From assembly GCF_057098645.1 (NCBI RefSeq), contig NZ_CM169472.1: DNA of 64,000 nt, one strand, 5' to 3'. Positions 48,401 to 51,400 of the stretch are shown piece after piece. Within the stretch, counting starts at the first letter, position 1. The number at the start of each line of letters is the position of its first letter. Position numbers: made by a program.

Positions 48401-51400
48401 CGCTTTATACCGCCATTCCAGCACTTCGGTCAGCGGCATAACGTCAGTAACGGATGGCGGCCAGTGAAAGATGGTGGCGATATCTGCCACCAGATCGTCA
48501 ACCGTCAGGCTGTCGGTAAACCGGCAAGCACCGACTTCTTCAACAAAAAAGTGACAACCTCAACCGACATGGCAGTGAGATCTGCCGGGTCCATCTCTGC
48601 GATTTCCTGTGCAGTCAGTGCCGGACTGGAGATGCGGGGGATCACGGTCATCATCGCGTTCACATCCATATCCATAATGGCCTGCAGGCGTGTGCCGCGC
48701 AGCGCACCGGACTGCGGTTTACGCAGCACAATTTCGGTAATTTCTGTTTTACCGCGCATGATGGGAGTATCCAGTTTAATAGTCTTTTCAGTCTGCTTAT
48801 CGCTCATTTTGCTGTCCTGTAAATTGGGTTCTGGCGCGGCATTCCGCGCCGTTCAGATACATCAGAGGCCGAGGGCGTTGCGGTGCGCTTCCATCAGGTC
48901 CACACCGTCCACAATTTCCACCATGTTGATAAGGTCCACTTCATAGAGCACCTCACCATTGATAGTCAGCTTCGCGTAGCTGTTGGTACTGGTCACTTTG
49001 GTGGTGTTGCTTTCGCCCGTCTTCCACTCGCCGGAATCCACTTCTTTGTGACGTCCACGCACCACAAGCTCCACGGCCTGCACTTCTCCGGTATCGTCAC
49101 GCTGGATAGAGCCGGTGAAGCGCAACTGGATGCCATCCACCGTGGCTTTGCCCATCTGTTTAAACAGCAGCAGTTCAGTACCACCAATGGAAAATTCTGT
49201 GTCCAGCGCACTGTCATCAAGCCCCAGATCCACATCCACTGCACCCGGCATTCCGCCGCCGCGATACTTCTCATATTTGCGGGTGAATTTCGGCAGCGTC
49301 AGCGACTCAACGATCCCCTGCCAGTTGTTCCCGTCATTAAACAGGTTCAGGTGTTTTAATTTGCGTGGTAAAGCCATGTTGTCCCCTTACGCGCTGACCT
49401 GGCTAGAGAAATTCACCAGGTACTGATCGGTGATGCGCTGACGCAGCATCAGGTTTTCAAGTGGCGGCACTGGCGTGTAGTCGTAGTCGATGGTGAGTTT
49501 TCCGGCTTTCAGCGTGTCTTTGTCGTTCACCGACTCATCCAGCCAGCAATCACCACCAATGAGATAGCCCTGACTGACCAGGCTGCGCATTTTGGCGCGG
49601 ATCCCCTCGATAATGTCGCGGGCCAGCGACGGGTTAAGCGGTTTATCCACCGCCCACATGTGTGCTTCTGCCATCGTGTCCATCAGCACCTGCGCCGTGC
49701 GGGTGTAGTTTTCGAAGGCAAAGAGCGGGTCATCACTCAGGCAGCGGGAACCCCAGAAGCGGAAACCGTCTTTACGCACAAGCGTGGTGACGTCGTTCTG
49801 GTTCAGCAGACCTGCATCGGTTGCCGGGTCCTGCAGATCCCAGAACACATCAGCAGAAATTCCGGTGACACCGTTCACGCCCACGTTGGACAGGCTTTTG
49901 TGCCATCCGGTCTGCTCGTCAATTTTGGCGCGCAGACCAAGCGCACGGGCGGTGGCATATGCCGTTGCTTCGGCATTCAGCACCGTGTCCCAGCCAGTAA
50001 AGTCAGGCCAGATCAGCATCCCTTCGCGCTGGCTGAAGTTTTCACGGTAAGTGATCGCCTCCTGTACCGTCTTGCAGCCATACGCTGACAGGTAAGCAAA
50101 TCCACGCAGGCTTTGCGCCACGCTCAGCAACTCAGTAGCTACCGCCTTGGTGTCGTGGCCTGGCACGCCGAGAATGCGCGGTTTAACGCCGAGCTGTGAC
50201 TGGGCAGATAACAGGGCTTTCATGCCTGTTTTTTTACCTTCAGCGGTCACTGCTCCGATGATATTGGTCGTGGTTTCTTCTTCCGTTTCACCCTGCGGCA
50301 CACGCACAACAACGGTCACGGGTTTTGCCTGGTCAGCGATGGCGTCCAGCGAACGGGCCAGCGTACCGGACTCACCCGCTTTACCGCTGGCAGTCAGCAC
50401 ATCAGTGATCAGCACGGGTTTATTAAGAGGAAACATTTTTGCATCGGCATCATCGCCCGTGCAGACCATACCCACGATGGCGGTGCTCACCGTGGTAATG
50501 GATCGGGTGCCTTCGTTGACTTCAACAACGCGCACTCCGTGGTGGTAATCCTGAGCCATAGTGGCGAACCTCCTGATTGGATTAGGCTTCGCCCTATGTT
50601 GAAGTGATTGTGCCTGACAAACAGCTAAGCGCAGTTGTGTCGTTATTCACACAAAATAACGGTATTTGTCCGCTTACAGGAAAAATCAAAATAATGCTGA
50701 CTCAGGGCGATTCATTGTTCTCATTCGCCGGAAATTTTCTATAAATGGTAGAAACGCCCACATCAAAAATCAGTGCAATACGCTGTCTTGATTCTCCGGC
50801 CTCGAGTAAACGTCCAATCTGTGCCCACTGTTCGGTAGTCAACTTAGGACGGCGTCCACCTACTCTGCCTTTAGCACGAGCTGCAGCCAGCCCTGCCCTG
50901 GTACGTTCAACTATCAGTTCGCGTTCCATTTCAGCCAGGGCACCCATGACATGAAAAAAGAAACGGCCCATTGGGGTACTGGTATCAATACTGTCAGTCA
51001 GACTTCTGAAATTCACGCCGCGCTGGCGCAACTCTTCTATCAGAGTAACAAGATGCCGCATACTGCGCCCCAACCTGTCCAGCTTCCAGACAACCAGTGT
51101 GTCACCTGCCGATAGTGTCCTGAGCAGTTTTTTAAGCCCCGGTCGGTCGGACTTCGTGCCGCTGATTTTATCCTCAAAAATCAGCTCACATCCTGCACAC
51201 TCCAGCGCGTTACGCTGCAATTCCGTATTCTGGTCATTTGTTGACACGCGGACATAGCCAATAAGCATGATGGATCCCCTGAATAAAAACCGGGGATGAT
51301 GCCAGTTAGCCGTAATCTCTGCATTTTCTTAAACGTTGGTTTGGGAGAAGCGGCAAAACGAAATGTGGGCAACGGGGAAAACCAAATCCCTGATATGTCT

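Follow-up and report, generated by a model that had tools for sequence, protein, structure and literature searches.

A predicted pF-type late promoter with an Ogr-type activator-binding dyad upstream of the sheath gene FI in a P2-family prophage

Comparison of the DNA upstream of the tail-sheath gene FI with that of related phages suggests that the inverted repeat at 50636..50653 is very probably the activator-binding site of a pF-type late promoter of a P2-family prophage, and that this promoter is the orthologue of P2 pF. Positions are those of the window, by which we mean the whole stretch of 64,000 nucleotides that was analysed. The 18-mer, TGTGTCGTTATTCACACA (read on the coding, minus strand as TGTGTGAATAACGACACA), is an exact match to TGT-N12-ACA, with its TGT and ACA triplets at 50651-53 and 50636-38 and its centre at 50644.5. 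It extends to the palindrome TTGTGT-N8-ACACAA, which has 6-bp arms and occupies 50635..50654. The gap in which it lies, 50560..50701, measures 142 bp and is the sole non-coding DNA between the invertase ORF (50702..51268) and the FI ORF (49387..50559). A preliminary description of this DNA had placed a TGT-N12-ACA element at 50636..50653 and had called the gap the only intergenic one between invertase and FI, and both statements are accurate. Its central proposal, an Ogr-type late promoter dyad upstream of FI, is supported as a prediction by the presence of an ogr gene, the geometry of P2 pF, sister dyads at other late operons, conservation among relatives and the lack of a sigma-70 consensus.

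The site lies among the late genes of a P2-family (Peduoviridae) prophage, a region that extends from about 43.4 kb to the right end of the window and is encoded on the minus strand except for P (plus strand, from 62761), which is divergent from the minus-strand late genes. The genes are arranged in the order ogr-like, D, U, T, E/E', FII, FI, invertase, invertible tail-fibre segment, G, H, I, J, W, V, S, R, lysis genes, L, M, N and O. FI (49387..50559, minus strand, ATG at 50559) encodes a protein of 390 residues with Pfam matches to Phage_sheath_1 / 1C and 68% identity to P2 FI, and it heads a minus-strand FI-FII-E/E'-T-U-D operon of the sheath-tube-tape-measure-D type. On the other side of the gap lies a gene for a serine DNA invertase (recombinase; 50702..51268, minus strand, 188 residues, Pfam Resolvase and HTH_7), which is context for the promoter and no part of it. 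Escherichia phage 500465-1 (genus Wadgaonvirus, family Peduoviridae) shares 95% identity with the gap and its flanks. A 181-bp stretch that comprises the gap together with the end of the gene on either side is present in 828 of 5,426 complete E. coli genomes, and in these 828 genomes the gap itself has no annotated feature.

As the motif is short, its frequency needs to be considered. TGT-N12-ACA is not enriched in the 64-kb window, where it occurs 18 times as against 15.5 +/- 3.8 times in shuffled sequences, 28 of 100 shuffles reaching 18. Because this frequency is at chance level, a bare match to the motif proves nothing, and the case has to rest on context and comparison. The prophage part of the window (about 20.6 kb) contains seven matches, three of which fall into intergenic DNA, a total of roughly 650 bp (about 3%), and each of these three lies directly upstream of a late operon. 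Judging from the sequence comparisons, it is the placement of the dyad and its conservation that are above chance, not the frequency of the motif.

The two intergenic matches other than the one before FI are candidate sister sites. The one assigned to pV, TGTATCAGCACTGATACA, is located at 56801..56818 on the minus strand, in the 68-bp S-V gap and 64 nt before the V ATG, and is a palindrome with 9-bp arms. The other, TGTGTGGTTGTCGGTACA, at 62697..62714 in the 142-bp O-P gap, would be common to the divergent promoters pO and pP and is therefore given without a strand. The whole 64-kb window was also scanned with a weight matrix that had been trained only on 39 pF sites with flanks unrelated to those in the window. 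The matrix ranked the pV site first (17.3 bits), the pF site third (16.6 bits) and the pO/pP site fourth (12.5 bits). Among 20 shuffled windows, the highest score was 16.9 bits as against 16.6 bits for the pF site, and with one shuffled window in 20 at that level, no single matrix score is significant. What is significant is that three of the four top-ranking predicted sites fall into the three gaps in which sites are expected. The second rank (16.9 bits) went to a match at 43900..43923, inside D, which we considered and rejected as an extra activator site, since it is missing from the homologous sequence of P2 and a score just as high was reached by one shuffled window. This match is probably due to chance.

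Conservation was assessed with 80 loci from IMG/VR, all from enterobacterial relatives, in which FI is 91-99% identical. Together with the window, the 160-nt regions upstream of FI amount to 67 distinct sequences and fall into 18 families at 70% flank identity, several of which cannot be aligned to the gap in the window. TGT-N12-ACA begins 87-94 nt before the FI ATG in all 80 loci (67/67 distinct upstream sequences). The 80 loci hold 81 matches at -100..-80 relative to the FI ATG, as against a background elsewhere in the same loci of 2.5e-4 per base, equivalent to about 0.005 expected per locus in this interval. The spacing of 12 nucleotides is exclusive: it is present in 67/67 distinct sequences, and spacings of 11 or 13 are present in none (0/67). 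The inner 12 bp of the dyad and its flanks vary, with, for example, 12 versions within each of two families of 13 members.

Column statistics were calculated for 63 distinct sequences anchored on the dyad, so that the TGT and ACA columns are invariant by construction. Outside these anchors, T-1, G+31, A+53, A+56 and T+57 are invariant, and A+6 (98%), C+55 (97%) and A+64 (97%) are nearly so. Columns 52-57 make up a -10-like element, xAaCAT, at a fixed distance from the dyad, whereas the distance from the dyad to the ATG varies by 7 nt. It follows from this variation that what is constrained is how far the downstream element lies from the dyad, and a fixed spacing to a putative -10 is what a promoter predicts. 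Relatives that have another gene upstream share the segment that runs from immediately left of the dyad as far as the ATG, which indicates that the module travels with FI and not with the invertase. For enterobacterial P2-like phages, the refined pF consensus reads tTGTg..A....c...ACAa, followed 35 bp further on by xAaCAT.

In the window, this pattern leads to a core promoter prediction on the minus strand. The dyad at 50636..50653 would be the binding site of an activator of the Ogr/B/Delta type, as it matches the motif exactly, is kept in relatives and has the geometry of P2 pF. Downstream of it, the putative -10, CAACAT (50596..50601), has an A at -11 and a T at -7. A weak -35-like hexamer, CTGTTT (50619..50624), can be recognized 17 bp upstream of this putative -10; in relatives, conservation is limited to its T and G (50623 and 50622), with T in 79% at column +30 and the invariant G at column +31. 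Transcription is predicted to start at the A at 50589, give or take about 3 nt, which corresponds to the highly conserved column +64. A start at this position would place the dyad centre at about -55.5 and leave a 30-nt leader; the Shine-Dalgarno sequence of FI, AGGAGG, is read directly from the sequence at 50569..50574, 9 nt before the ATG at 50559. The predicted centre at -55.5 agrees with the position of about -55 given for Ogr sites in the literature (PMC3152322). A scan for consensus promoters found no consensus sigma-70 promoter on the minus strand of 50300..51400, and the lack of such a consensus on the FI strand is in keeping with an activator-dependent promoter. An alternative -10 register, TTGTCA-16-CATAGG with a start at about 50586, appears less likely because TTGTCA is not conserved.

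A suitable activator is encoded on the same element. The ogr-like gene (43413..43631, minus strand) lies downstream of D, and its product matches Pfam PF04606 (Ogr_Delta) with E = 6.7e-22. Read from the ATG at 43631, the ORF has 72 codons for amino acids; an ORF tool also lists a longer version with a GTG start at 43664. Compared with P2 Ogr, the protein shows 51% identity over 72/72 residues, and it retains the CX2CX22CX4C spacing, its cysteines being at 4, 7, 30 and 35. Its score against NCBIfam PRK09678, 98.5 bits, is below the cut-off of 116. By domain and identity tests, the element that carries the dyad thus also encodes a cognate zinc-finger activator of the Ogr/Delta family.

How close is the arrangement to that of P2? 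In a blastn search with the gap, more distant relatives among the matches listed align in the coding part of FI only. With no blastn match to the intergenic sequence, which differs from that of P2 apart from the triplets, the comparison with P2 was made by geometry. The P2 record (NC_001895) places the pF activator site at 17555..17583, the transcription start at 17626-28 and the ATG of FI at 17652. The dyad that we read from this record is TGT-N12-CCA with its centre at 17569.5, which lies 56.5-58.5 nt from the start; between centre and ATG there are 82.5 nt, as against 85.5 nt in the prophage. With the predicted start of the prophage and the mapped one of P2 pF, the distance from dyad to start would be about 55-58 nt. 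Common to both are the location directly upstream of the sheath gene that heads the FI-FII-E-T-U-D operon, triplets of the TGT / ACA type 12 bp apart, a poor -35 and an ogr-type gene downstream of D. The differences concern the dyad, which is perfect here (TGT...ACA, 6-bp arms) and imperfect in P2 pF (TGT-N12-CCA), which makes the consensus a loose one, and the -10, which is GAAAAT in P2 pF and is predicted to be CAACAT here. The activators of prophage and P2 are only 51% identical, and the upstream neighbours differ as well: an invertase gene without a clear terminator in the prophage, and fun(Z) on the other strand together with the V-operon terminator in P2. The correspondence extends to the other late promoters. 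The P2 record has one activator site for pO and pP and a pV site before V, with the pV start at the V ATG, and the TGT-N12-ACA sites of the prophage are found at the same places as these.

The wider family follows the same plan. One report describes a common TGT-N12-ACA and dependence on Ogr for the four P2 late promoters PP, PO, PV and PF, and predicts similar TGT-N12-ACA-like sites for Smp131 (PMC3931495). For phiRSY1, another report predicts TGTTGT-N13-ACAACA at 50-90 nt before start codons (PMC5694545). In P2 itself, Ogr is described as binding inverted repeats centred near -55 and as requiring contact with RNA polymerase's alpha subunit (PMC3152322). The systems of 186 (B), P4 (Delta), PSP3 (Pag) and phiR73 (Delta) resemble the present one in combining a small C4 zinc-finger activator with an upstream dyad for each late operon. 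Our literature search for mapped late promoters of the Wadgaonvirus lineage (Escherichia phage 500465-1) found none. The promoters of this lineage are assumed, from what is known of the family, to be cross-activated by P2 Ogr or P4 Delta.

Three other interpretations of the palindrome have to be weighed against the promoter. The idea that the dyad is a chance match without function, with FI transcribed by read-through from the invertase gene or the V operon or from an unrecognised promoter, draws on the abundance of the motif in the window (18 matches, 15.5 expected) and on the absence of a canonical terminator between the invertase gene and FI. It does not account for a motif that keeps its place across 18 flank families even as the inner 12 bp and the flanks differ, for its fixed spacing to a conserved -10-like element, for its co-occurrence in the pV and pO/pP gaps or for its correspondence to the annotated P2 pF site, and we regard it as very improbable. 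A second idea is host catabolite control through CRP instead of control by Ogr. CRP-dependent class I promoters likewise combine an upstream palindromic site of the TGTGA...ACACA-like kind with activation through the alpha subunit. TGTGAATAACGACACA (50651..50636, minus strand) matches TGTGA-N6-TCACA at 9/10 positions; in the region upstream of FI in the window, the best match to the CRP half-sites has one mismatch and stands at -92 from the FI ATG. Yet the spacing that is conserved is the N12 between TGT and ACA, not that of CRP: TGT-N12-ACA is present in 67/67 distinct sequences, and the CRP-compatible N10 spacing in 33/67, as a by-product of TGTGT/ACACA. The CRP motif has one mismatch in 7 of the 67 sequences, two in 26, three in 32 and four in 2. 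A CRP site would also have its centre about 54.5 nt away from the predicted start, a non-standard position for both class I and class II. With TGTGA-N6-TCACA not conserved (2-4 mismatches in 60/67 distinct sequences), we rejected a CRP site at the dyad, a reading that is exceedingly improbable.

The palindromic DNA could, in principle, also act as RNA, forming a hairpin that ends or stabilises the invertase transcript, with TGT and ACA being incidental. A second inverted repeat, CGTTATT (50661..50655) / AATAACG (50647..50641), does overlap the dyad with arms of 7 bp, which reach 9 bp in some relatives. A terminator scan picked up a marginal, weak stem at 50674..50658, and relatives that lack the invertase, like P2, have a clear terminator T-run right next to the dyad. 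Against such a hairpin speak several properties of the gap: the stems are either rich in A+T or no longer than 5 bp, the larger one is not followed by a U-run, the gap folds no better than shuffled sequences (z = -1.3), and arm variants occur without compensatory changes. The overlapping repeat is, furthermore, found in a single flank family, in contrast to the universal TGT-N12-ACA. A search of the gap against Rfam gave no match at E <= 1. We consider it extremely unlikely that a hairpin explains the palindrome, and with only a marginal 5-bp stem, the z-score and the missing compensation, we rejected a rho-independent terminator as the main function of the gap. A terminator role is compatible with a promoter role, and a minor one may exist in addition to it. 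A crossover site of the Hin/Gin/Pin type in the gap was likewise considered. The actual repeats are at 51324-51350 and 53268-53294, no copy of them being reported in 50560..50701. By eye, TTCCTGTAAGCG (50681..50670) resembles a gix half-site; it was rejected as such, because this stretch varies among close relatives and the real inversion repeats are elsewhere.

Together, the data suggest a model for late transcription from the predicted pF promoter. During lytic growth, the prophage would make its own Ogr-like zinc-finger protein, encoded at 43413..43631. This protein would bind the TGT-N12-ACA dyad, about 55 bp upstream of the start, and would then recruit host RNA polymerase containing sigma-70 by way of the alpha subunit, a contact that is carried over by analogy from the P2 literature. 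The core promoter would otherwise be weak, with CTGTTT as its -35-like hexamer, CAACAT (50601..50596) as its -10 and a start close to 50589. On the minus strand, the polymerase would then move leftward and transcribe FI, FII, E/E', T, U and D. Dyads of the same type at V and at O/P would put all late operons under one switch. In this model, we infer the binding by the Ogr homologue, the exact start and the dependence on the activator from the sequence.

The module might do more than P2 pF does, although we think this very unlikely. In this lineage, an invertase gene has been inserted directly upstream of the pF module without a recognisable terminator, and the second inverted repeat (50641..50661) overlaps the dyad. 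Invertase transcription in the lysogen could then continue into FI...D and ogr, unless it were blocked by the overlapping hairpin or by the activator bound at its site, an arrangement that would couple tail-fibre switching, leakiness of the late genes and autoregulation of Ogr. Another such possibility is that the activator reads the site directionally, as the conserved inner positions of the dyad, A+6 (98%) and C+11 (83%), are not mirror images of each other and are thus asymmetric.

The arrangement is well known from the P2 family; a promoter at this place is unsurprising and adds no new biology. Its value lies in annotation. Marking pF would complete the map of regulatory sites in a P2/186-like prophage that is very common, with three dyads for four late operons, and would supply precise coordinates for experiments on the pF promoter.

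Among the FI-related IMG/VR loci aligned on the activator dyad (L003-L082), two of the twelve positions between TGT and ACA of the pF site, the predicted Ogr-type site before the sheath gene FI, are strongly conserved in the dyad-anchored columns: A at +6 (98%) and C at +11 (83%). Neither of these bases mirrors the other across the dyad, which argues that the pF site is functionally asymmetric despite its TGT/ACA symmetry. The left half of the dyad is overlapped by another inverted repeat at 50641..50661 (minus strand), in which a 7-nt spacer separates the arms CGTTATT and AATAACG; these arms extend to 9 bp in some relatives (ACCGTTATT / AATAACGGT). 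No compensatory pattern was seen among the arm variants in the relatives compared, and the repeat occurs only in the invertase-linked flank family.

The invertase gene itself (50702..51268) lies just beyond an invertible tail-fibre segment (51296..53294). Imperfect inverted repeats (51324-51350 and 53268-53294, 78% complementary) enclose the variable 3' part of H together with the chaperone gene of H (52208..52813, minus strand) and, on the opposite (plus) strand, an alternative fibre tip (51296..51790) and a chaperone (51793..52236).

By the weight matrix trained on pF sites, the second-ranking site in the window (16.9 bits) is CGTTGCGTCATTCTCGCTACAACT, a TGC-N12-ACA sequence at 43900..43923 (minus strand) inside the D gene. 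As it lies about 280 nt upstream of ogr, the activator gene, it could be a hint of Ogr autoregulation. However, P2 does not have such a site at the homologous position, and one shuffled window reached a score as high, so that the match is probably due to chance. The pO/pP dyad is centred at 62705.5, which leaves only 55.5 nt to the start codon of P (62761), while the corresponding distance in P2 is 79 nt; were the geometry P2-like, either the mRNA of P would lack a leader or the true start of P would lie further downstream. Another TGT-N12-ACA match (62755..62772) overlaps the P start codon.

The stop codon of ogr is about 70 nt from the end of an ORF (42793..43341, plus strand) for glyoxalase III HchA. 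Since this ORF covers only positions 3-183 of the 287-position NCBIfam model and ends so close to ogr, the junction (the ORF and 43380..43420) seems to place the prophage end inside hchA, truncating the gene; the second end is beyond the window. The prophage of E. coli ATCC 8739, with a pF region (181 bp) 100% identical to that of the window, sits instead between ybjL and rcdA. The two prophages also differ between S and V, where the gap is merely 68 bp in the window, but holds a P-loop ATPase gene of the Sll1717 family in the ATCC 8739 relative (15159..16670 of its locus), at the position that is occupied in P2 by the non-essential orf30. The S-V gap, which adjoins pV, is therefore a variable cargo slot.
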